DNA from: an uncultured Alphaproteobacteria bacterium | GTDB taxonomy: Bacteria > Pseudomonadota > Alphaproteobacteria > Methylaequorales > Methylaequoraceae | Reading direction: 5' to 3' | Assembly (NCBI GenBank): GCA_902522465.1 | Contig: CABYVV010000002.1 | Span: 65,764 to 129,763, forward strand | Length of the DNA stretch: 64,000 nucleotides | Part shown: in pieces, positions 7,186 through 26,170 of the stretch | Numbering within the stretch: the first letter of the stretch is position 1 | Layout of the letters: each line of letters opens with the position of its first letter | Program-made: the position numbers and the translations under genes | The notes under the pieces: model-generated | Told to the model about the DNA's origin: nothing | The model's database searches: none | Seen by the model: the letters and a program-made list of their open reading frames with translations, nothing else

Positions 7186-7280
7186 CTTTTAATTATTTAT
7201 GATTTTATATTCAGTAAGACAAATACAAATTTTGTGCCAATAGAAAATAGAATTTATTTGATGAAAAATAATGATAAAGA

Positions 7281-8477
7281 TTAGAATTTTGTTTTTTCGT
7301 GAAATCCTTTTGAAGCTAACAAACATAAAAGTAGATAGTAGCTCCCCTGCCACCATTCTAACCAAAAAGAGAAATTAACCAAGGAAGCTCCCCAAAAGTA
7401 TGCATTTAAAAAAATAAGGAAAATGTGAAAATTTACAGAATTATTTATTTTGAAAATTCTAAAATTTATCAAAAATAGGAATAAAACAAATAAAGTTGTT
7501 CCAATTAAACCTGTCTCTAATAGAAGTTCAAAAAAGAAATTATGAGGATGGCTGGGAATAAAATTCATATCTCCAGTAAATTTAATTCCAATATCCTCTT
7601 GACTTCCTTCAATAAAATTTGATGAGTCTGGACCATATCCAAATAACGGTTTGTTCTTAAATTTATCAAATGTAAAACCCCAAATAATTTGCCGATGAGC
7701 ATCAACTATATTGAGTGGTATTTTATATTCAAAATTAGTCATATAATTTTTATCAAATCTATTTGGTAAATTACTTATAAAAATATTTGTAAGGAAAATT
7801 ACTATTGAAAATGAAATAAAAATTATCGAATTTTTGTAAAATGATGATTTTACATATTTTTTGAATAAAAAATAAATTATACAAAACATAGTCCCTACTA
7901 ACAAGCCAAGAAGGCTAGAAGCTGATCCAGTCATAAAAATGTTAGGAATTAGAAGAACAGAAGAAATTAAATTTAGTTTAGATTTAAAGAAGTATAAATT
8001 TAAAATTGTTATCAAAGAGATAATATTCATATAACCTTTAAACATAACTAGTTCATTTGAATTATAATTGACAATGTTATAGGTAAAGATAAGTACTGAG
8101 TTAAAAAGAATACTTAAAGATAGTGTTTTGAATAAAAGTTCTAAATTACTTTTATTTCGATGAAAAATCAAAAATGTCAAAAAAGAGAAAAAAAGAAATA
8201 TAATGAGATAAATTAAAACTGAAAAAGATCTATTTATTTCAATAGAATTAATTGAGGAAAATAAAAATGATATAAAAAAAAAACAAATTAGATAAACATC
8301 AAAGGTTTTTGTTTGCTTAATAACCTTCTTTAATTCTTTTATGATTAGACTTTTATTAGTTGCTAATAAAATTAAAATACCTAAGCCAACGGAAATACCA
8401 AATGCAATTTTATTTATGATCAAGAATGTAAAAGAAAATCCAATTAAAATTATTGAGTACCCTGAAAAATTTTTCAT
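7281..8477 (-). CDS. O-antigen ligase / polymerase-like (WaaL/Wzy_C family) polytopic membrane protein
   Basis: 398-aa highly hydrophobic ORF with about 10 predicted TM segments. The periplasmic-loop motif 'IPSHPHNFFFELLLETGLIG' matches the Wzy_C/O-antigen ligase signature (HxHNxxLexxxexG). Confidence 0.7.
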   Translation of the reverse strand: MKNFSGYSIILIGFSFTFLIINKIAFGISVGLGILILLATNKSLIIKELKKVIKQTKTFDVYLICFFFISFLFSSINSIEINRSFSVLIYLIIFLFFSFLTFLIFHRNKSNLELLFKTLSLSILFNSVLIFTYNIVNYNSNELVMFKGYMNIISLITILNLYFFKSKLNLISSVLLIPNIFMTGSASSLLGLLVGTMFCIIYFLFKKYVKSSFYKNSIIFISFSIVIFLTNIFISNLPNRFDKNYMTNFEYKIPLNIVDAHRQIIWGFTFDKFKNKPLFGYGPDSSNFIEGSQEDIGIKFTGDMNFIPSHPHNFFFELLLETGLIGTTLFVLFLFLINFRIFKINNSVNFHIFLIFLNAYFWGASLVNFSFWLEWWQGSYYLLLCLLASKGFHEKTKF

Positions 8478-11066: not shown

Positions 11067-11855
11067 ATGGCAATTAATGCGATGCATGTAGCAAAAACCG
11101 GTCTAAATGCCCAACAGGTTAGAATGCAAATTATCTCAAATAATTTAGCAAACGTGAACACTAATGGATTTAAAAGAGACAGAGCAAACTTTGAATCCCT
11201 ATTGTATCAGATCATAAGAAGCAGTGGTGCACAAACATCCGTTGATACAGAATTAACTTCGGGCTTTTCAGTCGGTACTGGTGTTAACATCGTGAATTCT
11301 AACAAGTTACATTCACAAGGAAGTATAGTTTCGACTGATAATTCTCTTGATTTAGCCATTGATGGAGGAGGGTTTTTTCAGGTGTTATTACCTGACGGTC
11401 AGGTAGTCTATACCAGAAACGGTGCTTTCTCTAGAAATAATGAAGGTATTTTAACAACAAATAGTGGTTTTATTATTCAGCCTGAAATTGCTATCCCTGC
11501 TGAGGCAACAAAAATAAATGTTTCTGCAGATGGAATAGTATCAGTTCAAATACCTGAACAGGTTGAGGCTCAGGAAGTTGGTCAGCTTCAATTAGCTGAT
11601 TTTCAAAATAGAACTGGGTTACAACCAATAGGAGAGAATTTCTATGTTGAAACAACATCAAGTGGTCCACCCGTTATTGAGAACCCATTTGCGGCAGGTT
11701 TTGGTAAAATCATTCAAGGCGCATTGGAAAGTTCTAATGTAAATGTTGTACAAGAATTAGTTGATATGATTGAAACTCAAAGAGCATATGAAGTAAATTC
11801 AAAAGCAATCACATCTGTTGATGAGATGTTGAGATTTGTAAGTAACAACCTGTAG
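11067..11855 (+). CDS. flgG: Flagellar basal-body distal rod protein FlgG
   Basis: 262 aa. The N-terminus 'AKTGLNAQQVRMQIISNNLANVNTNGFK' and the C-terminus 'SNVNVVQELVDMIETQRAYEVNSKAI' are rod-family signatures. It is followed by flgH and flgI. Confidence 0.95.
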   Translation: MAINAMHVAKTGLNAQQVRMQIISNNLANVNTNGFKRDRANFESLLYQIIRSSGAQTSVDTELTSGFSVGTGVNIVNSNKLHSQGSIVSTDNSLDLAIDGGGFFQVLLPDGQVVYTRNGAFSRNNEGILTTNSGFIIQPEIAIPAEATKINVSADGIVSVQIPEQVEAQEVGQLQLADFQNRTGLQPIGENFYVETTSSGPPVIENPFAAGFGKIIQGALESSNVNVVQELVDMIETQRAYEVNSKAITSVDEMLRFVSNNL

Positions 11856-11857
11856 GA

Positions 11858-12556
11858 ATGAAGATGAGATATTTTTTATTTATTACATTATTTTTTCTTC
11901 AGAGTTGTGCTTCTCACATGCAAGATAGAATTGGTGAGGAATTCCAGAGTATACAACCAGATTACTCTAACTTTGAAAATATAAATAACGCAACTGAAGG
12001 TGCGGTTTACGATGGTGACGGTGGTCTTTTTGCATCCGACAGGAGAGCAAACAGAGTTGGAGATATAATTACGGTAACTTTAGAAGAAACTGTTACAGCC
12101 GCTAACTCAGGATCTGAAACACTAGCTAAATCTGATGCATACACTTTTGATCTTCCAGAGGCATTATTTGGTCCTTCATCATTAATTGGAAAATTATTAT
12201 TTCCTGGAGGGGTTAAAGAAGGAAATCTTCAAGGTGGTACAACTCAAAACTTTACAGGTTCTGGAACTGCAGCTCAAGCTAATAGTATAACGGGTACAAT
12301 ATCAGTAACAATTGTAAGAGTTTATCCAAATGGAAATCTTGAAGTAAAAGGACAAAGAAGGCTTAAATTTAATAGTGGTACAGAATATATCAGACTTGCG
12401 GGCGTTATCAGACCAGATGATATTTCATCAACCAATACGGTTTCATCAAAGAAGGTTGCTGATGCTCAAATTTCTTATACTGGTACTGGTGATATGAATG
12501 ATAGTGTTACAAAGGGATGGTTAAGTAGATATTTTGCTTACGTCTCACCTTTTTAG
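11858..12556 (+). CDS. flgH: Flagellar L-ring lipoprotein FlgH
   Basis: 232 aa. It has a lipoprotein signal with the lipobox 'FLQSC'. '[15 protein letters not shown]', '[30 protein letters not shown]' and 'GWLSRYF' match FlgH. Confidence 0.95.
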
Positions 12557-12563
12557 GATAATT

Positions 12564-13682
12564 ATGAAAAAATTTTTAATGATATTTTGCATTACTTTTC
12601 TAACAAATCAATCAGTCTTTGCTGACAGGATAAAAGATATGGCTTCTTTTGCTGGAGTAAGATCAAATCAACTTGTTGGTTATGGCCTAGTGATTGGTTT
12701 GGCAAAAACTGGTGATGGAAGTGTGAACTTAACTAAACAAAGTATTGCAGCTATGATATCTCAATTTGGTGTGATTGCTAACACAGCAGACATTGATGCT
12801 ACGAACTCCGCAAATGTGATGGTAACGGCAAATCTTCCTCCATTTGCAAAACCAGGTCAAACAATTGACGTAACTGTTTCAACCATTGGAAAAGCAAAGT
12901 CTTTAAAAGGAGGTACTCTTTTGATGACAGCTCTGAAAGGGGCTGATGGAGAAGTTTACGCAATTGCTCAAGGCAATTTAGTTGTTGGAGGATTAGGCGT
13001 TGAGGGTGCTGATGGATCAACTACAATACAAGGAACCCCCACTGTGGGGAGAATTCCTGGTGGAGCAACTGTTGAGAAATTGGTAGAAAATACATTTTTG
13101 GAAAGAGATAATGTTGTGCTAAATTTACATCAAGCTGACTTTTCTCAAGCTAATAGAATTGCAAATACTATTAATGAAACATTTGGACCTGAAGTTGCAA
13201 TTCCAATGGACTCAACCTCAATAAAAGTTAGAACACCTAAAAACCCATCTCAGAAAGTTTCATTTATTGGTTTGCTTGAAAATATAAATTTTGAACCAGT
13301 TACTCCTAAAGCCAAGGTTGTTGTAAATTCAAGAACAGGAACTGTTGTGATAGGTGGCGATGTAAGAATTTCACCGGCAGCGGTTGCTCATGGAAGTTTG
13401 TCAGTAAAAATTCAAGAAGACACTAAGTTGTTATCTGAAGGTACAGGAACGGTGGTTGGAAGTTCTGCTACAGTCTCTGGAACAGCAGCAACAACAGCTG
13501 CAGATACTCAAATAGAAGTTGATGAGGCCCCAGCAAGAGCTTTTGTTTTTGATCCTGGAATAGAGTTGCAAACATTAGTAGATGCTTTAAACGAAACTGG
13601 AACAACAGCAACAGATATGGTCGCAATTCTTGAGGCACTCAGAGAAGCAGGTGCATTAAGAGCTGAACTAATAATAATTTAA
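12564..13682 (+). CDS. flgI: Flagellar P-ring protein FlgI
   Basis: I chose the start at MKKFLMIF (12564) rather than the ORF-track 12534, which would overlap flgH. Signal peptide ends '...SVFA'. The mature '[32 protein letters not shown]' and the C-terminus '[18 protein letters not shown]' are classic FlgI. Confidence 0.95.
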
Positions 13683-13697
13683 CTTATTGGATAAATT

Positions 13698-14003
13698 ATG
13701 GACAACAATCCAATCGCCAAAATCAGACCAATCAATAATTTTGAGCTTTCAACCTCTAAACTTGATAATTTAAATGAAAAATCCGAACTTTCACAGGTTG
13801 CCCAAGAATTTGAATCGTTATTTGTTTATCAAATGTTGAAAAGTGCAAGAAAAGCTAAATTAGCTGAAAGTTTGTTTTCAAATCAAGGTAGCGAAACTTA
13901 TGAGTCTTTATTAGACCAAGAATACTCAAAAACAATTGCCAAAAATCATAGTTTTGGAATTGCTGATGCATTAGTCAGGCAATTTGGAGGAAAAAGAAAA
14001 TAA
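13698..14003 (+). CDS. flgJ: Single-domain FlgJ (rod-binding/rod-capping domain only, no muramidase domain)
   Basis: 101 aa. 'QVAQEFESLFVYQMLKSARKA' and 'YESLLDQEYSKTIAK..GIADALVRQF' match the FlgJ N-terminal rod-binding domain. The ORF ends before any glucosaminidase domain. It sits between flgI and flgK. Confidence 0.85.
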   Translation: MDNNPIAKIRPINNFELSTSKLDNLNEKSELSQVAQEFESLFVYQMLKSARKAKLAESLFSNQGSETYESLLDQEYSKTIAKNHSFGIADALVRQFGGKRK

Positions 14004-17000
14004 ATGCCAAGTTTATTTGATATAGGAAAAAGTGGTCTTCAAGCCTACAGACAATCATTGGCTGTAACAGGTCAGAATATAGCAAACGTCAATACAGACG
14101 GTTATAAAAAAAGAGATGTCGCATTGGAGGAAGTCTCCGGAGCAGGAGGTGGAGTCACAGAGATTTCTGATCAAACTGGTTTGGGAGTAAGAGTTGAACA
14201 AATAAGAAGAGCATTTGATGAGTTTTTAATTGACAAGGCTAGACAAGCCTCTTCAAATTTTAAAAGTGCAGAGTCTTTTTCAGATGAATTAAGAGATTTA
14301 GAAAACTTGTTACTTCCCACAGATAATAATCTTAGTTCATCAATTGGTAATTTTTTTAATTCATTGCAGGATATAGCTGCTTATCCTGACGATCAAGCTG
14401 CAAGAATAGTTGCAATTGAAAAGGGAAAAGATTTGGCAGCTCAATTCAATATGTATTCTGATAGAATTGAAAACCTTAAAAGTCAAATTCTTGATAAAAC
14501 AAAAAATGCTGTCACATCTGTAAATTTAATTTCGACACAAATTTCAAATATTAATGCTAAAATTTTGGCATCAGGGGTTGCAACAGGTGGATCTAACGCT
14601 CTATTAGATCAGCGAGATCTTCTCCTTGATCAGATGGCAGAATTAACACAAATTACAGTTAGGTATGGCAGTAAAGGGCAAGCTGAAGTAAGATTAGGTA
14701 ATACTGGTTCTGGGCCTATAATAATTTCTGATGCCGATAATCCTACAAAAGGAAATGAAACTACAACTAACATAAATGTTTTGGAACAGGCCGGCAGATT
14801 ACAACCAGTTGTTGGTATAGGACAGGTTGCAACAAATCAAATAAAAGCTGGATTAATTAATGGTATGATCAATTCATACGCTCAAGCGGAGGATACAATG
14901 AAAGACATCGATTCTCTAGCTTCACTCTTATCACAAAAATTTAATGAAGTTAATCAGGCTGGTTTAGATCTCGATGGAAAAAATGGAAAACAAATGTTTA
15001 CTGTTTCAAGTCTCGAGGCTGTTGAGAACCCAACAAATAGATCTAGTGTTGGAGTTGCAGTTTTTGTTACTAATCCTTTGGAGATTAAAAATGCTGAATA
15101 TAAAGTTATCTATCATGAAAATGAAGATTTGTGGAAACTCACGTCAGATTTAGATTCAAATGTCACTTCAGGAAAACAAACAATTGATGGTCAGGGTTTT
15201 AAAATTTCTTTTTTCGGTGAGCCATTAGATGGTGATGAATTTTCAATTGTACCGAGTAGTGCCTCTAAAGGGATGGCTTTTTTACTTAATAGGCCCCAAG
15301 ATTTTGCAGCTGGCTCCAAAACTCTTATAAGTTCAAGTTCCTCTAACACAGGAAGCGCCTCACTTGAAGAGATCACACCATTAAAATTTGAGGACAAGAC
15401 CAATATTAAAAATATACAAAGTGTGTTTTCAAATGGTTTAAGTCCTGTCACATCTTCAAAATTTTCAACTGATGGTGGTGCAGCAATTATTCAAGCGGGA
15501 ACATCATTCGTCAATTTAAGTTCATATAAAGCTCAACCTGAAATACAATTTGGACTTTCATCATCTGATTTAACTTCAATAACATCTATAAATGTTACAA
15601 TGGCTGACTCAAGTTCTGTTAACGTTGACCTGACTGGTATTAAATCACTTGAGGAATTAGCTGATGTTTTAAATAGGAGTAGAGACGTTCAAGGAAATGC
15701 TCACAATTTTAGATCTATGGGTCTCTTTGCATCTGGTGGTGGATCAACTCTTACAATTGCAAGTAATGATAAGCAATTTTCTTCAGGAGCAATATCCGCG
15801 GCCTCAACAATTAATGCAAATGTTGTCAATCCGACTGTCACGGCAGCAAGTAAATTACAAATATTTACTAGAGAAGGAAGGCATATTGCTGGTGAGGTTT
15901 TATCGGATTCTGAAATTGCTGAGTTTATGACAGAAGAAAATGGATTCAATAGATTTGCAGAATACAGAGCAGATTATCTCAATGGTACCGGCACAGAAAA
16001 ATATAGGGGTATTGAGGTTTCTCGATCAACTACCGATGGGAATTTTGTTATAAGTTATGGAGCTAATGGTGCTGCAGCAAGTGCACAAAGACATGCTACT
16101 ACTGTTCCTGCTAGCCATGTATCTGCTGCATATACTTTAACAGTAAATTCAACATCAACGGCAAAGTCAAAAAATATCACAGTACCAATTGAATCCTCTG
16201 CTGGTTTTGTAGCAGGACTTATTAATAAAGAAGCCAAAACACTTGGTGTTGAGGCTTTAGCTTCCACAAAAGTAAAAATTTCAGCACCATCTTCTAACGG
16301 GACAGTTTCATTTAATATTTTAAGTAAACCAGGTGTAGGGAATGATGCAGACATAACAGCTTCAATTTTATCAACTGATTTAACAAATCTAGCAAATTCA
16401 ATAAACAATTTTTCGGGAAGAACAGGAGTAATAGCAAATTTATCTTCCGATAAAAAACATATTGTAATGGAAAATGCTGATGGAGATGACATACAAATCT
16501 CTTCGTTTTCCTCTCCTAACACTGTAGAAATGGAAGTACTAAAAAATGACTTTTCATCATTTAGTTCTCCAGTAACCGTAATATTAGATAATACAAATTT
16601 TAAAGCAGCAAGATTTAGTGGAGAATTAGAAATCTCTTCAGCATCTGCGATTAGCACTTCCAATGATGGTGGTTCAACCACTGTTACTGGAACTCAAAAC
16701 GCATTAAAAGATGGTTTTCTGAACATTACTTCTTCAAGTACTGGCGAGGTGAAAACTATTAAGCCAGTTGTTCTTGACGGTGATTTTTCAAATGGACATC
16801 CTGACGGATTAAGTGCATCTAGTTCAGTGTTGTCTTATGGTTTGAAGATTCCAGCTGATGGTAATGGGGCTGAATTTAGTGCAACTGTTGATGTTTCAGC
16901 TTTGGAAGTTTTAGAACCATCTCAAGTTGCAAAAAAAATTGCTGAAGGATTAAGAGCAAACAGCCCATCTGCTGAATTGATTGGTACAGCTGTTGAATCT

Positions 17001-19094
17001 TTACCAAAAGATGGAACAAGTTTTAAAGTGAATCATGATGGTCTTACGTACACTTTAACTATGGAAAATGGAGAGGTTGTTGTATCCGGAGGTGAGAAAG
17101 GTTTAGTTACGGCTTATTTTGAAAATCCAGATCCAATTACTGTAAATACAACTAGCTTGAGTGGGACTCAAACAATTACTTCAACTGAGCATAATCTTGA
17201 AACCGGTGATGCAATTAAATATAATGCAGCTGAGAAAGTCACAGTTGATACAACGGATTTCAGTTCTACTAATACCATTTCCGTTATTAACAGTTTTAGT
17301 GATAATGATCCAGTTGTTTACAAAAAAGGAGGTAATTTACCAATTTCAGGTTTGGTTGATGGTACTACTTATTTTGTTAAAAATAGAACTGCAAATAGTT
17401 TTCAATTATCAGCAACTTCAGGTGGAAGTGTAATAACTATTACAGGTGGTACAGGAGGGAGTGTATCAGATACTTTCGCGAGTCCTCGAAATGGACTAGT
17501 AGACGGACAAACATATTATGTTGTAAAAGTTGATGAACATAATTTTAAACTAGCAAACAATTATACTCTTGCAACGAATAGCACTCCATCAGTTATAACC
17601 ATAGGTTCTAGTAGTGTAGGGGGAAATGCTTCTGATACATTCGATCCTCAAAAAAATCTATATATTTCTGGAGGGAAAACTATTTCAGGATCACAATTTT
17701 CTTTCCCAGTTGACTCTGTAAACGATGAAAATGCAAAATTATTTGGAATGCAAAGTACAAACGTTAAAACCACAATAACTGGTTTGTCTGTAACAACTCC
17801 CGCAGCAAGTAACTCAACACATTTTCATATAAAAATTAAAGATAATACCAATCCAATTGGGGTGTTTGTAAAATCAAATTCTAAAACAATAAATACAACT
17901 GGTGTTGGTGGCTCTTCAACAACTTTAACTTCTACTGGTCATGGTTTTAAAACTGGTGACAAAATAACCTATACTGCAGGAGGAACTCAACTTAACGGTT
18001 TGACGAATGGAACCTCATATTTTGCAAAAGTAGTTGATGCAAATACATTTAGCTTAGCATCATCATTTGCTAATGCAACATCAGATTCTCCAACTCTTAT
18101 ATCATTTGGAGGTGGGAATGGTCATGCCGGAGATACTTTTGCAACAGTTTTTGCAACAGCACTTCTTAATGATAATGCATCAACTCCTGCTTCTGCAGTA
18201 GGAATCACTGCTGAAATTAATCAAGTAAGTGATACTAATGCTCAAATTTCCATTATCAAAGAGGCAGATAAAAAAGAAATTGTTATCGATAGAATTACTT
18301 ACAGTGACGCAGCAACTGCAGAATCTTATGGATTTAAAACTAGTCAATTAAATTTAAATGTTTTAAATGATGAAATAAGGATTAAATCTTTTACATCAGA
18401 TTTATCAGGCTCACATGCTGTTGATTTAGAAGTTCCTTCAAATAGTATAAAATCTCTAATTGGAAATAATTTATCCATTTCGAATATTCCATCTGAAGAT
18501 TTAATTGTTCTTATGACAGGAAATGGTTCAAGAAAAATTGCCTCTGATTATGGAGATGTTCTTCCTAACTTAACCGATGAAGAATTTAAAATTTCAATCG
18601 ATTCAGCAAACAATAGAAAAGTTGAAGTGCTAGATAACAATACAGGTCATAGCATTGCAACAAGATTGATCCCAGATGATGGTATAATTAATGTCGTAGA
18701 AAAATCACTGAGAATTAATGGTGATGCAAAAGTAAATGACTCGTTTACGATATTAAATAATAATGATGGTATTGGTGATAATAGAAATATTTTGAAAATG
18801 ATTGATCTTCAAACCTCAGATGTCAATGGCTTAAATTCTGGAAGTTTTCAGGATATCTTTAATAAAACAGCAACTGAAATAGGAGCTACGGTTAGAAGTA
18901 GTCAAATGGAAGCAGAGGATGCTAGAGCAAGTAAAGACGAAGCTATTGCATTAGAAGATGAGAAATCGGGTGTTTCCCTTGATGATGAAGCATCATCTTT
19001 AATACAGTTCCAACAAGCTTTTTCAGCTAATGCAAGAATAATTCAAACAGCAAGAGAACTTTTTGATTCGTTGATGAGAGTAGTTTCTAGATAA
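14004..19094 (+). CDS. flgK: Giant flagellar hook-associated protein 1 (FlgK), 1696 aa
   Basis: The N-terminus 'SLFDIGKSGLQAYRQSLAVTGQNIANVNTDGYKKR' and the C-terminus 'GVSLDDEASSLIQFQQAFSANARIIQTARELFDSLMRV' are canonical FlgK termini. The ~1400-aa middle contains several flagellin 'IN'-type motifs and a repeated module. It is a single uninterrupted ORF. Confidence 0.9.
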   Translation: MPSLFDIGKSGLQAYRQSLAVTGQNIANVNTDGYKKRDVALEEVSGAGGGVTEISDQTGLGVRVEQIRRAFDEFLIDKARQASSNFKSAESFSDELRDLENLLLPTDNNLSSSIGNFFNSLQDIAAYPDDQAARIVAIEKGKDLAAQFNMYSDRIENLKSQILDKTKNAVTSVNLISTQISNINAKILASGVATGGSNALLDQRDLLLDQMAELTQITVRYGSKGQAEVRLGNTGSGPIIISDADNPTKGNETTTNINVLEQAGRLQPVVGIGQVATNQIKAGLINGMINSYAQAEDTMKDIDSLASLLSQKFNEVNQAGLDLDGKNGKQMFTVSSLEAVENPTNRSSVGVAVFVTNPLEIKNAEYKVIYHENEDLWKLTSDLDSNVTSGKQTIDGQGFKISFFGEPLDGDEFSIVPSSASKGMAFLLNRPQDFAAGSKTLISSSSSNTGSASLEEITPLKFEDKTNIKNIQSVFSNGLSPVTSSKFSTDGGAAIIQAGTSFVNLSSYKAQPEIQFGLSSSDLTSITSINVTMADSSSVNVDLTGIKSLEELADVLNRSRDVQGNAHNFRSMGLFASGGGSTLTIASNDKQFSSGAISAASTINANVVNPTVTAASKLQIFTREGRHIAGEVLSDSEIAEFMTEENGFNRFAEYRADYLNGTGTEKYRGIEVSRSTTDGNFVISYGANGAAASAQRHATTVPASHVSAAYTLTVNSTSTAKSKNITVPIESSAGFVAGLINKEAKTLGVEALASTKVKISAPSSNGTVSFNILSKPGVGNDADITASILSTDLTNLANSINNFSGRTGVIANLSSDKKHIVMENADGDDIQISSFSSPNTVEMEVLKNDFSSFSSPVTVILDNTNFKAARFSGELEISSASAISTSNDGGSTTVTGTQNALKDGFLNITSSSTGEVKTIKPVVLDGDFSNGHPDGLSASSSVLSYGLKIPADGNGAEFSATVDVSALEVLEPSQVAKKIAEGLRANSPSAELIGTAVESLPKDGTSFKVNHDGLTYTLTMENGEVVVSGGEKGLVTAYFENPDPITVNTTSLSGTQTITSTEHNLETGDAIKYNAAEKVTVDTTDFSSTNTISVINSFSDNDPVVYKKGGNLPISGLVDGTTYFVKNRTANSFQLSATSGGSVITITGGTGGSVSDTFASPRNGLVDGQTYYVVKVDEHNFKLANNYTLATNSTPSVITIGSSSVGGNASDTFDPQKNLYISGGKTISGSQFSFPVDSVNDENAKLFGMQSTNVKTTITGLSVTTPAASNSTHFHIKIKDNTNPIGVFVKSNSKTINTTGVGGSSTTLTSTGHGFKTGDKITYTAGGTQLNGLTNGTSYFAKVVDANTFSLASSFANATSDSPTLISFGGGNGHAGDTFATVFATALLNDNASTPASAVGITAEINQVSDTNAQISIIKEADKKEIVIDRITYSDAATAESYGFKTSQLNLNVLNDEIRIKSFTSDLSGSHAVDLEVPSNSIKSLIGNNLSISNIPSEDLIVLMTGNGSRKIASDYGDVLPNLTDEEFKISIDSANNRKVEVLDNNTGHSIATRLIPDDGIINVVEKSLRINGDAKVNDSFTILNNNDGIGDNRNILKMIDLQTSDVNGLNSGSFQDIFNKTATEIGATVRSSQMEAEDARASKDEAIALEDEKSGVSLDDEASSLIQFQQAFSANARIIQTARELFDSLMRVVSR
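17184..18140 (+). repeat. Three copies of a ~55-70-aa protein repeat module inside the FlgK variable region
   Basis: Copies: (17184-17477) 'TEHNLETGDAIKY...ISGLVDGTTYFVKNRTANSFQLSATSGGSVITITGGTGGSVSDTF'. (17478-17642) 'RNGLVDGQTYYVVKVDEHNFKLANNYTLATNSTPSVITIGSSSVGGNASDTF'. (17931-18140) 'TGHGFKTGDKITY...LNGLTNGTSYFAKVVDANTFSLASSFANATSDSPTLISFGGGNGHAGDTF'. Confidence 0.7.
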
Positions 19095-19102
19095 TTAATA
19101 TT

Positions 19103-19118
19103 AGGCATGAAAATTGCT
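19103..19118 (+). promoter_or_regulatory. Sigma54-like motif immediately upstream of flgL (uncertain function)
   Basis: AGGCATgaaaaTTGCT has the correct 10-nt GG-GC spacing. However, the -12 GC is only about 13 nt from the flgL ATG and no SD is visible. It is therefore either a leaderless-type transcript or a coincidence. Confidence 0.35.
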
Positions 19119-19129
19119 AATTTAAACTT

Positions 19130-20410
19130 ATGAAAATAAGTAATAAACTTTTTAATGATCAGCAGCTTGGACAATTTTCCAAAAATATGGAAAAGATACA
19201 AAAAATTCAAGACAAAATTTCATCAGGTAAAAATATAATTTTTGCTTCAGACGACCCTGTAGGAGCGGTTCAGTTGTCCGGTATGAAGGATAATCTGAGT
19301 AGAGTTGGTCGTTTTATTGAGAATTCAAATATTGCATTAGATAGGCTACATTTAATGGATGCAACTATGGAAGCTGTTAATACAGTTTTCATTAGAGCAA
19401 AAGAATTAGCTGTCCAAGCATCCAATGATATCTATGGTGTTATGGATAGAGAGGCAATTGCTATAGAGTTTGATGAGATGAAAAGCGAATTGATGACTTT
19501 GGCCAACACTCAAGATTCTACGGGTACATTTATTTATGCTGGATTTAAGACAAAGACAAGTCCATTCAAAATGAATGCAAATGGTGCGGTTGAATATAAT
19601 GGTGATAGAGGTGTTTTAAATTTACAAGTTACTGAATCTAGATTAATTGAAACATCTATTGATGGAAGTACTGTTTTTCAGGATATCGTTACATCTGAGG
19701 GTGTTTCCACAGATTTATTTGCTGCGTTAGATAATATAAGCAGATCAATCCGAACAGCAGCTGGAGGGGTCGAAGAGGCAAGAGCTAATGGAATTGCAAA
19801 AATTTCTTTAACAAATGCAGATCCTGGTACATATTCTTTTAAAATAACATCTGGTGAAAAATCTTCAGATTTTTCATTGAACATTACAGGAGATGATCTT
19901 ACTGATGTTGCTGCTGCGATCAATGGTGCAAATTTAGATATTACTGCAACATTAGAGGATTCAAATAAAACACTTAAATTAGTAAATTCATTGGGTAAAG
20001 ATATAACCTTAGGTGAATTACAAATTCCTGGTATAAATAAAGCACAAGTTTCTCCAACATCCTTTTTCTCATTTAAGGCAGTTGATGCCGCGGGAAATAA
20101 TTTATCAAATGAACAAACTATTTATGATAAAGATCAAACAATTGCTAGTCGACTTGATGAAATTGTAACAATACAAAGTCACGTTTCAAATCAAAGAGCT
20201 AAAGTCGGTGCGCGAATGAATAGCGCTGAGAGAATTAGAGATATATTAGATGAAAGACAAATTCTAATTAATAAAGATGTAAGTGAGCTTCAAGATGCTG
20301 ACCTTGCAACGCTGGTAACTAATCTTCAATCACAACTTACCAGTCAGGAGGCTTCGCAGAAAGCATTTATTAATATCTCAAAGTTAAATTTGTTTGACTT
20401 CTTAGGATAG
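19130..20410 (+). CDS. flgL: Flagellar hook-associated protein 3 (FlgL)
   Basis: 426 aa. 'IQDKISSGKNIIFASDDPVGA', a central 'DLTDVAAAINGANLDITATLEDSNKTLKL' IN-type motif and the C-terminus 'DADLATLVTNLQSQLTSQEASQKAF' fit FlgL. It follows flgK. Confidence 0.9.
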   Translation: MKISNKLFNDQQLGQFSKNMEKIQKIQDKISSGKNIIFASDDPVGAVQLSGMKDNLSRVGRFIENSNIALDRLHLMDATMEAVNTVFIRAKELAVQASNDIYGVMDREAIAIEFDEMKSELMTLANTQDSTGTFIYAGFKTKTSPFKMNANGAVEYNGDRGVLNLQVTESRLIETSIDGSTVFQDIVTSEGVSTDLFAALDNISRSIRTAAGGVEEARANGIAKISLTNADPGTYSFKITSGEKSSDFSLNITGDDLTDVAAAINGANLDITATLEDSNKTLKLVNSLGKDITLGELQIPGINKAQVSPTSFFSFKAVDAAGNNLSNEQTIYDKDQTIASRLDEIVTIQSHVSNQRAKVGARMNSAERIRDILDERQILINKDVSELQDADLATLVTNLQSQLTSQEASQKAFINISKLNLFDFLG

Positions 20411-20959
20411 TCATAAAAAATCATCAATACTGGGTTCTTTTTTTACTATTTCACCTAATTCATGAAGGTCTTCTTCTTTGGCAATATCCCATCCAGCAGG
20501 AGCTCTTTCGAAGTGACCTGATCTTAGAGAAAAAGAATAAGCTTTAAAATTTTTTACTGATTTATTACTATTGTATTGACGTTCTTTATCCCCTTTAAGA
20601 GAATTCTTAAATATACCTTTAATTTTTCTTTCACTTCTTCCGTCAAACTTAAACTTCCAAAAAACGTAATTTATGGCTAACTCATGAGCCTCAAACATTG
20701 GATTTTTTCTTTCAGAAATAAATCTGAGAATTTCTTCACTTGGTGCAGCAATCTCTATCTCTTCAACGCTTTTGTAGTGATGAGATATTGCATCGGAATA
20801 ATTCTTTGATACCATCTCTAGTGATAGTTGTTTAACAAGGAAATCCTTTACTGTAAGGCCAATACAGATATCGTATATAAATTCTGGACAGAATAATTTT
20901 TCACTCATATCAAAATTACTTATGTAAAGGTAATTATACAATAAAACCCAATAATTCAA
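20411..20959 (-). CDS. Hypothetical protein (orphan) wedged between flgL and the flagellin genes
   Basis: 182-aa ORF that abuts flgL convergently with 0 nt spacing. An alternative start is MSEKLF at 20908. I recognise no motif. Its length makes it very unlikely to be random in this AT-rich (stop-codon-rich) DNA. Confidence 0.5.
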   Translation of the reverse strand: MNYWVLLYNYLYISNFDMSEKLFCPEFIYDICIGLTVKDFLVKQLSLEMVSKNYSDAISHHYKSVEEIEIAAPSEEILRFISERKNPMFEAHELAINYVFWKFKFDGRSERKIKGIFKNSLKGDKERQYNSNKSVKNFKAYSFSLRSGHFERAPAGWDIAKEEDLHELGEIVKKEPSIDDFL

Positions 20960-20985
20960 TTAAAAACTAAATAATTACAAAAAAA

Positions 20986-21012
20986 CTTAACAAATCTGAG
21001 TATGGTCGTTTC
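20986..21012 (+). promoter_or_regulatory. Sigma28(FliA)-like promoter candidate upstream of flagellin 1
   Basis: CTTAA-N14-GTCGTTTC lies 53 nt upstream of the ATG. It shares the GTCGTT -10 core with the sites at 26114 and 27334. The -35 is the weakest of the three. Confidence 0.35.
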
Positions 21013-21064
21013 TATTGTAGCTAATGATTTTTAAAGGTTAATGGAAAATAAAGGAGAATAAATA

Positions 21065-21820
21065 ATGCCATCACTTTCAACATATACAAATGGAGCCGTA
21101 AGTGCAGTTAACGCCTCCACTCAGGCTAGAAGATCTCTAACAGCGTCTATAGCACGCATATCAACAGGTATAAGAACATTACATGGAAATGACCCTGCAG
21201 GTCAATCAGTTGCAAGTAACTTAACTACACAGTCAAGAAGTGCAAATATGGCTGCAAGAAATGCAGAGGACGGAATTTCAACGCTTCAAGCTGCAGAAGC
21301 CGTTTTGTTAGAAATGGCAACTTTAAATACAAGATTAAGAGAATTAGCAGTACAAAAGTTAAATTCAGACTTTTTGTCTGCTGCTCAGGAAAATGCAATA
21401 ACAGCAGAAGAAAGTGCAATAGTTGATGCTGCTGAAAAAATAAGTGAATCAACACTCAACGATAGAGAATTATTATCACCATTTTTGCTTGCCGTTAATA
21501 ATCGCGGAACACTCTCACTAATGGGACCAGTTAAAAAACCAGTTCTACAAAGTGGGGTAAGTAACGTCGACACACAAATGGCGAACATATCCATGGCTTT
21601 GGGGCAAGTTGCTGCGGGAATAAATGCGTTAAAAGGGCATCAAAGTAATATGCATTCATTAACTGCCAACGCACGAGCTGCTGCTTCAAGAATTCAGGAT
21701 ACTGATTTTGCTAAAGAGTCTTCCACTTTAGCACAAAGTAGTATTCTAAACCAATCTGCCTTAGCAATGGTAGCGCAAGCTAACAATGCTATGGGTAATT
21801 TATTAACTTTACTACAATAA
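21065..21820 (+). CDS. Short divergent flagellin (class A, paralog 1)
   Basis: 251 aa. The N-domain 'IARISTGIRTLHGNDPAGQSVASNL...ARNAEDGISTLQAAEAVLLEMATLNTRLRELAVQ' and the C-domain 'RIQDTDFAKESSTLAQSSILNQSALAMVAQANNAMGNLLTLLQ' are flagellin D0/D1 helices. The canonical 'SSGxRIN' is replaced by 'STGIR'. A strong SD 'aaaggag' is present. Confidence 0.85.
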   Translation: MPSLSTYTNGAVSAVNASTQARRSLTASIARISTGIRTLHGNDPAGQSVASNLTTQSRSANMAARNAEDGISTLQAAEAVLLEMATLNTRLRELAVQKLNSDFLSAAQENAITAEESAIVDAAEKISESTLNDRELLSPFLLAVNNRGTLSLMGPVKKPVLQSGVSNVDTQMANISMALGQVAAGINALKGHQSNMHSLTANARAAASRIQDTDFAKESSTLAQSSILNQSALAMVAQANNAMGNLLTLLQ

Positions 21821-21838
21821 TATTAAGGAGAAAATAAT

Positions 21839-22597
21839 ATGACATCTGTAAGTAACGCTGCCGTTGGTGCTTTTCTAGCTGGAAACGCTGCGGCAAAAGC
21901 AAGACACGGCATGAACGAAGCAATTGCTCGATTGTCGACAGGTATAAGATCTATGTATGGCGGTGACGCGGCTGGTGCGTCTGTGGCTCATACTCTGAGA
22001 GCTGATGGACGAAGTGCAGCGATGAGTGCTCGTAACGTTGAGGATGGTATTTCATTCTTACAAGCGGGTGAGTCTGCACTACTGGAAATAGCTGCGCTTA
22101 ATACAAGATTAAGAGAACTTGCAGTTCAAAAACTTAACGCTGCATTTTTAGATGCCAACCAAGAAGCTGCAATCACTGCTGAAGAAAATGCAATTCTTGC
22201 AGCTGGTAATTTAATCGATGCTGCAACACTAAATGATACCGCTCTTTTATCAGCTGCGATAAATTTTACCAGAGATATGGATGGTGCAGTCACAGCATTT
22301 GGTTCAAACGCTGATTTAACCCTAGCATCTGGTATAACTGCAGTAGATAGAGAAATGGGTAAGATATCTAAAGCCCTAGGTTCTCAAGCTGCTGGTATTG
22401 CTGCTCTTAAAGGTCACCAAGGTACATTGTATGGATTAGCTGCAAACGCAGAAGCTGCTGCTGCACGTGTTCAGGATACTGATTTTGCAAGATCATCTGC
22501 AGATCTAGCAAAATTTTCTATCTTGAACCAATCAGCAATGGCTATGGTAGCACAGGCTAACCAAGCTAACGCTGCTGTTTTGGCGGTGCTAAATTAG
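21839..22597 (+). CDS. Short divergent flagellin (class A, paralog 2), Ala-rich and visibly more GC-rich
   Basis: 252 aa and collinear with paralog 1. Shared blocks include 'ARLSTGIR', 'ALNTRLRELAVQKLN', 'AITAEE', 'ALKGHQ', 'QDTDFA' and 'ILNQSAMAMVAQAN'. It lies 18 nt downstream of paralog 1 and has its own SD 'aaggag'. Confidence 0.85.
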   Translation: MTSVSNAAVGAFLAGNAAAKARHGMNEAIARLSTGIRSMYGGDAAGASVAHTLRADGRSAAMSARNVEDGISFLQAGESALLEIAALNTRLRELAVQKLNAAFLDANQEAAITAEENAILAAGNLIDAATLNDTALLSAAINFTRDMDGAVTAFGSNADLTLASGITAVDREMGKISKALGSQAAGIAALKGHQGTLYGLAANAEAAAARVQDTDFARSSADLAKFSILNQSAMAMVAQANQANAAVLAVLN

Positions 22598-22626
22598 ATA
22601 GATAAAATAATACTATCATAAAAGTA

Positions 22627-22663
22627 AAAAAGGAGACTAAATTGCTTAGTCTCCTTTTTTTTT
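22627..22663 (+). terminator. Rho-independent terminator after the tandem short flagellins
   Basis: The stem GGAGACTAA (22632-22640), loop attgc and stem TTAGTCTCC (22646-22654) are followed by a 9-nt T-run. An A-run precedes the hairpin. Confidence 0.8.
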
Positions 22664-22801
22664 CCCTATTTTTTTTTTTTACTTAATAAAAAAAAATCTT
22701 ATCAGCTTAAATGTCAAAAATATAACACTAAATATCGTATTTTTTTCTTTAAAATTCACAATATGAAGTATGTTTTGGATTTTTTTTCCAAATACATAAT
22801 T

Positions 22802-22817
22802 TGGCATTCTAATTGCA
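22802..22817 (+). promoter_or_regulatory. Sigma54 (-24/-12) promoter of the long flagellin / fliD / fliS unit
   Basis: TGGCATtctaaTTGCA has 10-nt GG-GC spacing. It lies 36 nt upstream of the ATG at 22853, with SD 'aaggag' in between. Apart from the 5-nt spacer it is the same as the flgG promoter motif (TGGCAT-N5-TTGCAcA). Confidence 0.7.
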
Positions 22818-22852
22818 CACAACCTATGTGAAAAATTTAAGGAGAAATATAA

Positions 22853-24412
22853 ATGGTTAGCGTAAGCACAGTAAATACTCACGCATCATTGAAGCACATT
22901 ATTAAGACTGAAAGAGAGATGCTCCAAGCAATGGAGAGAATCTCTTCAGGAAAAAGAATAAATAATGCAGGTGATGATGCAGCCGGTGCAGCAATAAGTG
23001 ATAGAATGTTGGCAACGGTGAGAGCTTTAGATATGTCAATTAGAAATGCATCTGATGTATTGTCTATGGCTCAGGTTGCAGAAAGTGCAATCAATGAACA
23101 CTCACAAGCTTTACAAAGAATTAGAGAATTATCAATACAAGCAGCAACTGATATTTTGAATGCTGAACAAAGAATTTATCTACAAACTGAAGCTAACCAA
23201 TTAATTCAAGAAATGGATAGAGTTGCAAGAGATACCACTTTTAATGAAATCGCTGTGCTAGATGGTACTTTTGCTGATAGACGTTTTCAAATCGGATCTC
23301 ATGAAAGAGAAAAAGCAGTTATCTCCGTTGCTAATATGAGAGTTGATAAAATTGGTGCATACCAAAGTTCAACAAGTATGGATGAAGCGGGAACAGCTGG
23401 AAACCTAGCATCAGAGGGTGTAGTAGGTGCCAATGCTTCTGTTACCAGTAGAGTAGTTGATGGAGATGATCTAACAATTACTGGATTAGTAGGACAAACA
23501 ACTATTGACGTAAAAGCTGGGCACTCAGCAAAAGATATTGTTGAGTTAGTTAATGCTAAATTTGATAATACAGGAGTAAGTGCAACTGCAACTACTACTG
23601 TTAAAATGCAGGTAAATAGTTCTGATGCTGCAACAGATCATGTAGTATCTTTTAATTTATACGGTAAAAATACAACTGCTCAGGCAATCTCTGCAACAAT
23701 TAGTGTTGCGGCAACAGTCGGAGCTTCAGATATGACAAACCTTCGTGATGCCATTAACGCCTACACAGCCACTACAGGAGTGAGAGCAACATTAAGCGCT
23801 GATAAATCAAACATTATATTAGTACAAGATGAAGGCGAAGATTTAATAATTGAAACAATTGATTTTGCAACTGTTACAAATGCTAATACTAAATTTACAT
23901 TTACAGCAATGTCTCAAGATCAAACAGATTCTGCAGCGACACAAATTACTACGGCTGTAGATACAAATCATAATAGTGGTAACACTGATTCAGTGAGATT
24001 TACTGGACAAATTACATTTCACTCTTCGCAAACATTTACAATTGCTGGTAATTCCGGTGGTGGTCTTTATGAAGCTGCACCGGGAACAGCTTCTTTAAAC
24101 CAAGTTGCTTCAATTGACATTAGAACTGTAGCAGGTGCTGTTGATGCTTTAAAAGTAATTGATAGAGCACTTGATAGGGTTCATATGGAACGCGCAAAGT
24201 TTGGTGCAATCATGAGTAGGATGAATGTTGTTATTGACAATTTAACAAATGTGTCAACAAACCAAAAGACTTCAAGATCAAGAATTACAGATGCAAACTT
24301 TGCAGCTGAATCAGCTAGACTTGCTAAATCTCAAATTCTACAACAATCTGGAATGAATATGATTTCTCAAGCATCAAGAACTATGCAAAATGTTTTAATT
24401 TTATTTAATTAA
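22853..24412 (+). CDS. fliC: Canonical long flagellin (class B)
   Basis: 519 aa. It has 'MERISSGKRINNAGDDAAGAAISDRM' and 'LQRIRELSIQAA', a Thr/Ser/Ala-rich central domain with IN-type motifs ('MTNLRDAINAYTATTGVRATLSADKSNIILV'), and the C-terminus 'RITDANFAAESARLAKSQILQQSGMNMISQA'. Confidence 0.92.
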   Translation: MVSVSTVNTHASLKHIIKTEREMLQAMERISSGKRINNAGDDAAGAAISDRMLATVRALDMSIRNASDVLSMAQVAESAINEHSQALQRIRELSIQAATDILNAEQRIYLQTEANQLIQEMDRVARDTTFNEIAVLDGTFADRRFQIGSHEREKAVISVANMRVDKIGAYQSSTSMDEAGTAGNLASEGVVGANASVTSRVVDGDDLTITGLVGQTTIDVKAGHSAKDIVELVNAKFDNTGVSATATTTVKMQVNSSDAATDHVVSFNLYGKNTTAQAISATISVAATVGASDMTNLRDAINAYTATTGVRATLSADKSNIILVQDEGEDLIIETIDFATVTNANTKFTFTAMSQDQTDSAATQITTAVDTNHNSGNTDSVRFTGQITFHSSQTFTIAGNSGGGLYEAAPGTASLNQVASIDIRTVAGAVDALKVIDRALDRVHMERAKFGAIMSRMNVVIDNLTNVSTNQKTSRSRITDANFAAESARLAKSQILQQSGMNMISQASRTMQNVLILFN

Positions 24413-24442
24413 ACTAGTGCTTTTTTAGGACGTTAAAATAGC

Positions 24443-26110
24443 ATGACCTCCGTAAACAACAGACCTGAAATTCTTACTAAGTTAGGTGTCGGATCAGGTC
24501 TTGATACCACCGCACTTATTGAAGCCTTAGTAAATGCTGAAACTGAAGGTGTTAAAGAAACACTAGACAATAAAGAAATTGAGTATAAGGCTCAGATTTC
24601 AGCCTTTTCTCAAATCAAAAATAATTTGAAGACTTTTAATGATAATTTAGAGATTATACAAAGTAATAACGCCCTAGGATATGCAGGATCAACTTCTGAC
24701 AAAACTATTGCAACTTTTACTGTAAATGGAAATCAAGCCTCCCAAGCAGTAAACTCTTCTTTAACTGTAACCTCTCTGGCAACTGCACATACGCTCACAG
24801 GACCGTCTTTGCCTTCGGCAAGTTCAACTGTTGGAGCAAGACAAATTAGTATTTCCTTTGGTACATGGTCTGCAGATCCAACTCAAGGAGGAGGGCAGAG
24901 TCATACCTCCAATGGAATGTCTACAATTACTGTAAATCCATCCTCTACTACTACGTTGATGCAATTAAGGGATATGATAAACAGTGCCGCTTCAGATTCA
25001 AATAGCGATGGTGAGCAAGATGTAACTGCGACAATTTTGTATGATGGTTCAAATTATATGTTATCACTTAAAAGTCAATTCGGAGCAGCTAATGAAATGA
25101 AAATTACCGACAATCATGCATCTTCACCTGTATATGCTTATGATACTTCTGATGGAGCGCAATTAACACAAAGAGTGGCAGGAACAAATGCCGCTTTTAC
25201 AGTTGATGGGATAAGTATGACAAGAACATCAAATAGTATTGATGATTTATTTGCAGGAATGACTTTAGATTTATTGGCAACATCGGATTCGGCTGTAACT
25301 ATTAAAAGTGAAGTTGATCTGGCTTCTGCGAGAAGTGCAATTACTGATTTTGTAACAACTTATAATGATGTAATGAAATCGTTACAAAGCTATAGAGAAT
25401 CTGATCCAACTGATGACGAGAGAAATGGCTTGCTTGCAGGTGATTCATTATTGAGAAGTATTATGAACGAAATGAGAAATAGTAGTGGAACAGCAATTAA
25501 TGGATATGAGGGTGGTCCTTACTATCTATCCAATATGGGTGTAAAGACCATGAGAGACGGAACTTTAAGTTTTGCAGATCCTGCTATGCTAGAAAGACAA
25601 TTTAAAAATAATGCAGAATCTTTGAGAAGTTTTTTTAAAGACCAGATTGTAAGTGATAATACTGATATAATTCCAAAAAGGTACAGCGTAGCAGACACTA
25701 AACCAGGTTCTTATGCAGTATCAGTTAGTTCAGGAACTGCTACAATTGGTGGCGTTTCAACAACTCAATCAGGTTCATTATATACTGTTGCATCAGGAGA
25801 TCCTAATGGAATAGCACTAGAGATCAATTCAAGTAATACGACAGGCACTGTTCATTATGGAAGAAGTTTTATAACTTTATTGCAAGACAAACTTGATACT
25901 TTCTTAAAATTTAATGGTTTAATTTCCAGTAAAGTGGACGGTGCTAACAAACGTTTATCTGCGTTAGCTGAAAAACAATCAAATCTTGAAGATAGAATTG
26001 CATCATTGTATAGTAGGTATGAAACACAATACTCTGCGATGGAAAGCACTATTGCAGGACTAAATGAAACTTCTAGTTTGCTTGAAAACGCTTTTAAAAG
26101 AAACGATTAA
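24443..26110 (+). CDS. fliD: Flagellar filament cap protein FliD
   Basis: 555 aa. 'LGVGSGLDTTALIEALVNAE', 'FTVDGISMTRTSNSIDDLFAGMTLDL' and the C-terminal coiled coil 'RIASLYSRYETQYSAMESTIAGLN' are FliD hallmarks. Confidence 0.92.
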   Translation: MTSVNNRPEILTKLGVGSGLDTTALIEALVNAETEGVKETLDNKEIEYKAQISAFSQIKNNLKTFNDNLEIIQSNNALGYAGSTSDKTIATFTVNGNQASQAVNSSLTVTSLATAHTLTGPSLPSASSTVGARQISISFGTWSADPTQGGGQSHTSNGMSTITVNPSSTTTLMQLRDMINSAASDSNSDGEQDVTATILYDGSNYMLSLKSQFGAANEMKITDNHASSPVYAYDTSDGAQLTQRVAGTNAAFTVDGISMTRTSNSIDDLFAGMTLDLLATSDSAVTIKSEVDLASARSAITDFVTTYNDVMKSLQSYRESDPTDDERNGLLAGDSLLRSIMNEMRNSSGTAINGYEGGPYYLSNMGVKTMRDGTLSFADPAMLERQFKNNAESLRSFFKDQIVSDNTDIIPKRYSVADTKPGSYAVSVSSGTATIGGVSTTQSGSLYTVASGDPNGIALEINSSNTTGTVHYGRSFITLLQDKLDTFLKFNGLISSKVDGANKRLSALAEKQSNLEDRIASLYSRYETQYSAMESTIAGLNETSSLLENAFKRND

Positions 26111-26113
26111 AAA

Positions 26114-26141
26114 CTAAATTATTCTAAAATTTTGTCGTTAT
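26114..26141 (+). promoter_or_regulatory. Sigma28(FliA)-like promoter candidate upstream of fliS paralog 1
   Basis: CTAAA-N15-GTCGTTAT lies 29 nt upstream of the ATG, with SD 'aggag' in between. Compare the enterobacterial TAAA-N15-GCCGATAA. Confidence 0.5.
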
Positions 26142-26170
26142 GCTCTATATAACTTTTTATAGGAGCAGTA

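Follow-up and report, generated by a model that had tools for sequence, protein, structure and literature searches.

The window analysed here, 64,000 nucleotides of DNA from an uncultured alphaproteobacterium (contig CABYVV010000002.1), carries a flagellar gene cluster in which flgK, the gene for the hook-filament junction protein, sits between flgJ and flgL in a flgG-H-I-J-K-L operon. The flgK open reading frame (ORF; 14004..19094, forward strand) starts with an ATG immediately behind the flgJ stop codon and, by the ORF list and translation, has no internal stop in the 1696 codons to its own stop. By our own arithmetic from base composition (∼35% GC, stop-codon frequency ∼0.07), an open frame of 1696 codons would arise by chance with a probability of ∼1e-54. 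A preliminary description of this DNA had reported a single uninterrupted ORF of 1696 amino acids (aa) for a FlgK with canonical termini and about three times the enterobacterial size; all three statements hold, and full-length orthologous ORFs in relatives support the first.

The Pfam domains Flg_bb_rod (PF00460, residues 6–35) and FlgK_D1 (PF22638, residues 97–332, E = 1.3e-44) are found near the N-terminus of the protein and Flg_bbr_C (PF06429, residues 1653–1692) at its C-terminus. Against the NCBIfam equivalog TIGR02492 (flgK_ends), which has a cut-off of 170.75 bits, the protein scores 260.5 bits. All peptides quoted in the preliminary description were located: GLQAYRQSL...KKR at residues 11–37, SSLIQFQQAFSANARIIQTA at residues 1664–1683 and TDLTNLANSINN...DDIQI at residues 791–832. 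By phmmer against PDB sequences, residues 1–418 and 1585–1693 are collinear with Salmonella FlgK (9go6, residues 1–417 and 445–552), and residues 55–454 and 1558–1691 with Burkholderia pseudomallei FlgK (4ut1, residues 58–464 and 539–669). The gene order flgG-H-I-J-K-L is kept in 11 of the 11 related loci examined, including those of Rhodobacter, Tabrizicola, PS1 and SAR116. Because of the TIGR02492 and Pfam FlgK matches, the collinear termini and the operon kept in relatives, we assign the ORF to a genuine hook-filament junction protein FlgK.

Read as the gap between the aligned blocks, the surplus length of this FlgK is one insertion of ∼1100 aa (residues 455–1557) in the outward-facing D2/D3 region, smaller than the ∼1400 aa first estimated. 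The serine plus threonine content is 24% in the insert and 16% in the core. The B. pseudomallei FlgK has a D3 domain that continues D2 (PMC5691160). The native Salmonella junction consists of 11 FlgK and 11 FlgL subunits, with the D0 domains lining the channel, the D1 helices buried and FlgK D2 exposed on the outside (PMC12221982). Because the insert is sited at the D3 position beyond D2, and D2 is exposed in the native junction, it must project outward.

FlgK1 (HAP1) of Rhodobacter (Cereibacter) sphaeroides (Fla1) has 1363 aa, close to the ∼1360 aa given in the preliminary description, and an 860-residue non-conserved central region that correlates with a hook-associated protein (HAP) of bulky appearance in electron microscopy (PMC7277832). 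Deletions of 100 aa in this region leave flagella that look normal while swimming is poor or absent, and the same paper reports internal repeats and no fewer than three IN motifs for this region (PMC7277832). BLASTP aligned residues 3–1040 of the window FlgK with residues 2–1008 of the R. sphaeroides protein (ABA79249.1; 29% identity over 1068 columns, E = 1e-95), and a C-terminal block, residues 1487–1691, with residues 1157–1360 (E = 3e-19). By these alignments most of the window insert is homologous to the 860-residue central region, and the window FlgK is best regarded as a FlgK1 orthologue of the same kind. The homology of their inserts speaks against treating the two as independent cases. 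Segment A of the insert (all segments are defined in the table below) contains the invariant motifs QIFTREGRH (residues 619–627) and YRADYLNG (654–661), and segment C contains TGHSIATR (1547–1554). BLAST segments covering residues 1394/1431–1694 are common to all length variants of the protein.

Between segments A and B lies a domain related to flagellin. Residues 719–892 are homologous to the outer domain (residues 212–405) of the 519-aa flagellin encoded downstream in the window (phmmer 36.6 bits, E = 4e-13; BLASTP 29% identity, E = 3e-14), and residues 738–855 are weakly similar to the middle of FlgL (residues 205–317; phmmer 13 bits). A Pfam search with the fragment 720–860 matched Flagellin_IN (PF07196) at residues 782–825 (21.3 bits, E = 3e-4, below the gathering threshold of 22.7); a second match at residues 711–758 is weak (E = 1.4), and the whole FlgK protein gave no Flagellin_IN match at E up to 1. 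The example of an IN motif cited in the preliminary description is this 782–825 match, in the flagellin-homologous domain, and stands; the "several" motifs claimed there reduce at the Pfam level to one near-threshold and one weak match. The fragment 661–860 gave chance matches alone against PDB sequences, so the link to a flagellin outer domain rests on the fold and on the neighbouring flagellin. We speculate that FlgK, FlgL and the 519-aa flagellin, through the IN-type outer domain they share, could give each protofilament an unbroken outer layer.

Three copies of a 71-aa beta-barrel module lie between segments B and C. A self-BLASTP of FlgK found no internal repeats; a diagonal-score scan and an iterated hidden Markov model (HMM) revealed them, with diagonal self-comparison scores of 47–65 against a shuffle maximum of 37–45. 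The module consensus is HGF-x-GD-x-V-x-Y ... GL-x-x-G-x-x-Y ... F-x-L ... GG-x-G. One copy (1087–1151) sits within another that is split in two (1054–1087/1150–1203), a clean nested insertion of the module into its own copy. The "baseplate wedge subunit" profile phrog_2885 matches residues 1270–1369 (E = 2.7e-11) and 1162–1217 (E = 3e-7). The match covers ∼100 of the 4179 profile positions and represents the sharing of one domain, not membership in the phage protein family. Tail-fibre profiles matched as well, phrog_38233 with E = 2.5e-9 on the third copy and another down to E = 4e-4 (PHROG 9370 is among the matched families). The best Foldseek matches in BFVD are to a cyanophage "baseplate wedge initiator" (E = 6e-12) with very low template-modelling (TM) scores of 0.05–0.12. 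Because residues 1041–1400 matched nothing by tblastn in 50,697 phage genomes, the phage link rests on the PHROG profiles and on these low-TM Foldseek matches. A separate model of residues 1035–1400 (predicted local distance difference test score, pLDDT, 83.4) gave no significant Foldseek match against the PDB, with recurrent weak matches to ubiquitin E1 enzymes (Uba1, UBA6; E = 0.04–0.2). On the third module E1_FCCH (PF16190) scored 14.3 bits (E = 0.04), short of its gathering threshold of 29.5. The E1 resemblance is at most a likeness to the small FCCH beta-barrel fold, a placement we infer from Foldseek output that carried no target coordinates.

We modelled residues 400–1599 with AlphaFold2 using 72 homologues (an alignment of 73 sequences). 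The model has a pLDDT of 86.4 and a predicted TM-score (pTM) of 0.79 and is nearly all beta, with a few short helices. For a chain of 1200 residues, so high a pTM points to packed domains and not to beads on a string. The best PDB match of Foldseek to the insert model is the D2/D3 region of Pseudomonas aeruginosa FliC (8erm; E = 1.6e-7, target TM-score 0.67), and further matches are Helicobacter pylori FlaA and FlaB, Campylobacter jejuni flagellin and, more weakly, FliD D2-D3. The output was without query coordinates, and we infer the place of the flagellin-D2/D3-like match within the insert. Pfam on fragments and Foldseek revealed in the insert neither an enzyme nor a lectin or carbohydrate-binding module, whether as a fold or as a family. 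Fragment-level Pfam matches to TACO1, WxLIP_PGBD, HIN, Aconitase_2_N and others (E = 0.01–0.2) were taken as noise.

Table. Genes of the flagellar operon, segments of FlgK and the downstream flagellin, in window coordinates.
Feature	Coordinates	Strand	Evidence
flgG	11067-11855	+	Pfam
flgH	11858-12556	+	Pfam
flgI	12534-13682	+	Pfam
flgJ, single-domain, rod-binding only	13698-14003	+	Pfam; matches the N-terminal part alone of FlgJ models
flgK, 1696 aa, single ORF including stop codon	14004..19094	+	TIGR02492, Pfam
FlgK N-terminal core, residues 1-454 (D0-N, D1, D2)	14004..15365	+	Alignment to Salmonella and Burkholderia FlgK; Flg_bb_rod, FlgK_D1
Insertion, residues 455-1557, at the position of Burkholderia D3	15366..18674	+	Gap between aligned stretches
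Insert segment A, residues 455-718, beta-rich	15366..16157	+	Invariant columns; aligns to R. sphaeroides FlgK1
Flagellin-outer-domain-like domain, residues ~719-850, two IN-type motifs	16158..16553	+	Flagellin_IN; phmmer/BLASTP against the 519-aa flagellin
Insert segment B, residues 851-1040, beta domains common to R. sphaeroides FlgK1	16554..17123	+	Collinear BLASTP to residue 1040
Two 71-aa modules, one nested in the other: outer split 1054-1087 and 1150-1203, inner 1087-1151	17163..17612	+	Self-comparison; module HMM
Third 71-aa module, residues 1304-1373	17913..18122	+	Module HMM, E = 7e-31
Insert segment C, residues 1374-1557, kept family-wide	18123..18674	+	BLAST segments; R. sphaeroides alignment
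FlgK C-terminal core, residues 1558-1696 (D1-C, D0-C)	18675..19091	+	Alignment to Salmonella 445-552 and Burkholderia 539-669; Flg_bbr_C
flgL, 426 aa	19130..20410	+	TIGR02550, 231.8 bits against a cut-off of 127.2
519-aa flagellin	22853..24412	+	Pfam Flagellin_N, Flagellin_C, Flagellin_IN (E = 1.5e-11)

We scanned one genome per species with an insert-only alignment and the patterns [IL][QH]IFTREGR and T[GNL]HSIATR, and found 78 loci/species genomes with the same insert, in the organism's own low-GC marine clade, in PS1, in SAR116 and in Rhodobacteraceae. FlgK has 1689–1794 aa in the low-GC clade (deposited as "uncultured Alphaproteobacteria AG-...", "Rickettsiales bacterium MED..." and "Pelagibacteraceae TMED13"), 1412–1440 aa in PS1, Parvibaculales and Rhodobiaceae (including the isolate IMCC14465), 1542–1620 aa in SAR116 and 1354–1370 aa in Rhodobacter, Tabrizicola, Gemmobacter and Paragemmobacter, with up to 2056 aa in one metagenome-assembled genome of the Rhodobacteraceae. 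As an unbiased test of length we searched a core-only query (residues 1–454) against 1.84 billion cluster representatives and counted the best 150. Among these 150 best core relatives, 104 have at least 1000 aa (median 1374, maximum 2341), and 14 have a canonical 520–699 aa. By these counts a giant FlgK is the norm, both among the immediate relatives and in the FlgK lineage as a whole. The preliminary description had treated the size as a rarity, and had named a survey of FlgK length in relatives beforehand as what could lower the novelty; the survey shows the giant size as the norm. The same text had called the gene a large investment. In DNA alone, 5.1 kb is ∼0.3% of the ∼1.5-Mb genomes of the relatives, and because there are 11 FlgK per flagellum (PMC12221982), the cost in protein is trivial next to thousands of flagellins.

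The module HMM found between zero and five copies of the 71-aa module per giant FlgK across lineages. Within the clade the copy number follows length: the ∼1790-aa forms have an extra copy at residues 852–919. Five copies each are present in two longer relatives (P0078, 2029 aa, and P0084, 1989 aa), and none in R. sphaeroides, in IMCC14465 or in the two longest forms named here (P0158, 2125 aa, and P0193, 2341 aa). A 1783-aa form (P0098) is also without the 71-aa module, and by eye has about three tandem copies of a different ∼90-aa repeat, "...TLPAATY...ALQ.AINADS...". The giants without the module must use other modules. Thus different lineages extend one conserved scaffold by the accretion of different modules.

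The window FlgK has 539 homologous matches from many independent assemblies, some on contigs of up to 1.48 Mb. They fall into classes of 1696 aa at 81–89% identity, ∼1790 aa at 67–70%, 1685–1703 aa at ∼60–64% and 1411–2030 aa at ∼40%. Over 20 independent genomes from the same clade, obtained from single cells or metagenomes, contain full-length orthologous ORFs of 1689–1794 aa, and the architecture and the length of 1696 aa are identical in at least eight independent genomes. In a codon comparison with orthologues from ten genomes, the ratio of nonsynonymous to synonymous substitution rates (dN/dS) was 0.03–0.08 in all segments for the three closest orthologues and 0.03–0.11 in every segment along the whole length of flgK; with dS saturated, these ratios are upper-bound-like estimates. 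The closest orthologues are 83–93% identical in the insert and 91–92% in the core, and the insert is under purifying selection as strong as that on the core. An artefactual long ORF, whether from a chimeric assembly, an overlooked frameshift or gene decay, has a negligible probability. Short fragments of 313–1124 aa do share the 90% protein cluster of the window FlgK, on long contigs of 234–468 kb, but the 1696-aa form recurs in independent genomes, the 1689–1794-aa forms in many more, the low dN/dS extends over the whole length, the predicted fold is confident, and the protein is collinear with the characterised 1363-aa FlgK1. The concern over a frameshift or chimera, raised in advance, was thus checked through orthologues and dN/dS, and these comparisons exclude an assembly artefact or a decaying gene. 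The short cluster members may be long-read frameshift errors or true pseudogenes. A contig deposited as "Flavobacteriales bacterium SP47" (PBAP01000021.1) carries an 87%-identical flgK and is most likely mis-binned. Inside flgK there are a 208-aa antisense ORF (16055–16681, reverse strand) and two shorter ones of 82 and 86 aa, which probably arise from the sense strand's codon usage, rich in Ser/Thr/Gly/Ala.

Downstream of flgL are two flagellins of ∼250 aa, the 519-aa flagellin, fliD, three fliS paralogues and a fourth flagellin-like gene. This filament gene set (21065–30597) is unusual; three of its flagellin-like genes are minimal, with 251, 252 and 254 aa and no outer domain, beside the single 519-aa flagellin with Flagellin_IN motifs. 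The three separate FliS paralogues (26171–26566, 27377–27778 and 29878–30264) may provide one chaperone per flagellin class. A 568-aa CLC-type chloride channel with a CBS domain is encoded between two of them (27818–29524, forward strand), within the flagellar cluster. Immediately 3′ of flgL on the opposite strand is a 182-aa ORF (20411–20959) with no Pfam or NCBIfam match. It is kept beside flgL in close relatives (44–93% identity), and in PS1 and SAR116 it lies at other places in the flagellar loci (32–34%); its product could be a flagellar chaperone or regulator that has gone unrecognised, e.g. one like FlgN. The GC fraction of the flagellar cluster (12000–28000) is 0.32–0.37, against 0.25–0.29 in the surrounding DNA; comparable peaks occur at 52–56 kb and 62–64 kb, over conserved metabolic genes. 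Amino-acid composition or constraint, rather than horizontal transfer, may account for the raised GC of the cluster. Rfam and tRNA scans of the window gave no match.

Directly upstream of the flagellar cluster, on the reverse strand, is a glycosylation island (210–8477) for a nonulosonic acid of the sialic, pseudaminic or legionaminic type. It encodes a TylF-like methyltransferase, NeuB, a CMP-sugar cytidylyltransferase-HAD fusion, a DegT aminotransferase and a GT2 glycosyltransferase, together with a Wzy_C O-antigen-ligase-like protein and a 545-aa TPR protein without a recognised catalytic domain. The TPR protein is possibly similar to the FlmG flagellin glycosyltransferase. The island resembles the flagellin glycosylation islands of the Campylobacter and Caulobacter systems, and its gene content suggests that flagellar proteins are glycosylated.

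Taken together, the window FlgK is a FlgK of the "bulky HAP" type whose insert probably forms an enlarged structural collar at the junction. The canonical D0/D1/D2 core would build the 11-subunit junction ring, and a ∼1100-aa chain of beta-rich domains is inserted at the outward-facing tip of D2. Together the 11 inserts would most likely surround the junction with a thick and fairly rigid collar, which would stiffen or tune it so that torque reaches the filament without distortion. The insert grew by domain accretion and includes the flagellin-type outer domain and three 71-aa modules, one of them nested. Several points weigh against this explanation. The junction of the window organism is known from sequence and a monomer model, and the collar geometry and the contacts between subunits would go beyond both; the pTM of 0.79 belongs to a monomer fragment with a fairly shallow alignment of 73 sequences. 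The mechanical role would be carried over to the window organism from one distant relative at 29% identity. The region with the phage-type modules (residues ∼1041–1486) is outside the R. sphaeroides precedent, and a Ser/Thr-rich insert adjoining a nonulosonic-acid island would also fit glycan display.

It is unlikely that the outer domains are ligand-binding or adhesive modules for a surface glycan or particle, with the junction doubling as an attachment or sensing device. Phage baseplate and tail-fibre parts often touch host surfaces, and the matches of the 71-aa module to such families (phrog_2885, phrog_38233 and BFVD), as well as its copy number of zero to five between lineages, speak for such a role. 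But 11 copies at the cell-proximal end of the filament are a poor site for adhesion, no lectin or carbohydrate-binding-module signature was detected by the searches above, and the modules are under strong purifying, not diversifying, selection. Moreover, the phage link extends neither to a sequence-level match in phage genomes nor to viral TM-scores above 0.12, and several giant relatives (R. sphaeroides, IMCC14465 and the 2125- and 2341-aa forms) do without the module. An insert that is mainly a scaffold for O-linked nonulosonic-acid glycans, with a coat continuous with glycosylated flagellin that would serve stability or protection from phages, grazers or proteases, is rather improbable. The Ser/Thr content of the insert and the NeuB island directly upstream on the opposite strand speak for it, but the island may serve the flagellins or, given its Wzy_C O-antigen-ligase-like gene, the cell envelope, Ser/Thr richness is common in beta-rich extracellular domains, and a glycan carrier has no need of 1100 tightly conserved, well-folded residues. 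We know of no glycosylation of FlgK in any relative, although we made no search for it, and this too counts against the scaffold. The adhesion, sheath or glycan-anchoring roles proposed in the preliminary description are thus not supported, no enzyme or lectin fold having been detected.

That the enlarged FlgK is an adaptor which nucleates several flagellin classes (the minimal ones of 251–254 aa and the 519-aa one with an outer domain) is very improbable, although the window has four flagellin-like genes in two size classes and three FliS paralogues, and FlgK, FlgL and the 519-aa flagellin have the IN-type outer domain in common. The solved junction has FlgL as an intervening layer between FlgK and flagellin (PMC12221982); it is therefore FlgL, not FlgK, that would adapt to the flagellin, and the earlier suggestion that FlgK matches several flagellin classes is not supported. 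Templating is, in addition, a matter of the D0/D1 cores, not of the outer domains. The Fla1 system of R. sphaeroides combines a giant FlgK with a single flagellin, which also counts against an adaptor. A wider possibility, which we regard as quite unlikely, is that the 11-FlgK collar in marine Alphaproteobacteria (the low-GC clade, SAR116 and PS1) is a glycan-bearing or glycan-binding device beyond mechanical reinforcement, and may protect against flagellotropic phages, as a shield or decoy, or sense contact with particles. The reasons to consider it are the lineage-specific accretion of phage-type modules, including the nested copy, and the adjacent glycosylation island; if true, this would give the hook-filament junction a new function.

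The structural collar remains the explanation we favour. The main consequence of the analysis is that what looked like an oddity becomes a family. In one widespread flagellar lineage, which takes in Rhodobacteraceae, PS1, SAR116 and the low-GC marine clade, an oversized FlgK of 1100–2341 aa is the rule, and the family consists of a shared insert scaffold that lineages lengthen with different modules. The "bulky HAP" observation in R. sphaeroides thereby gains a broad comparative framework, and the motifs QIFTREGRH, YRADYLNG and TGHSIATR, together with the module boundaries, are targets for mutagenesis and cryo-electron microscopy. That very small marine genomes retain a 5-kb junction gene under strong purifying selection argues that the collar is functionally important. 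The finding does not reveal a new kind of system. Neither the phage-baseplate-type modules, including the nested copy, nor the breadth of the giant-FlgK family was found described in the literature searched, and in these two points lies a modest novelty.

Among known systems, R. sphaeroides FlgK1 is alike in its core, its insertion site and its flgG-H-I-J-K-L context, which is seen in Rhodobacter, Tabrizicola and related loci, and has the motifs of the insert in slightly altered form (QIITRDGRHIAG and TGHSIGSR). The window FlgK is 333 aa longer; its residues ∼1041–1486 correspond to only ∼148 residues in FlgK1, from which the three 71-aa phage-type modules are absent. The window comes from a low-GC (∼0.25–0.36) marine bacterium with related genomes of ∼1.5 Mb, whereas R. 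sphaeroides is a phototroph of 69% GC in which the bulky junction and the need of the central region for normal swimming are documented; the window protein is known from its sequence. An assignment of the host to AEGEAN-169/HIMB59 was considered and given up, as flagella go unmentioned in the paper on that clade. The B. pseudomallei FlgK (4ut1, 673 aa) also has an extra outward domain after D2 at the same position in the chain, but there ∼75 residues (464–539) separate the aligned blocks, compared with ∼1100 residues and many domains in the window. Phage baseplate wedge and tail-fibre repeats (PHROG 2885, 38233 and 9370) have the small module alone in common with the window FlgK, and the rest of the phage proteins is absent from it. 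The D2/D3 domains of flagellins, including giant flagellins and the Flagellin_IN motif family (PF07196), show the same combination of a conserved axial core with variable surface domains. In the window, however, the outer domains are carried at 11 copies by the junction protein and not by the filament, and whereas the outer domains of flagellins are hypervariable, those of the window FlgK are highly conserved.

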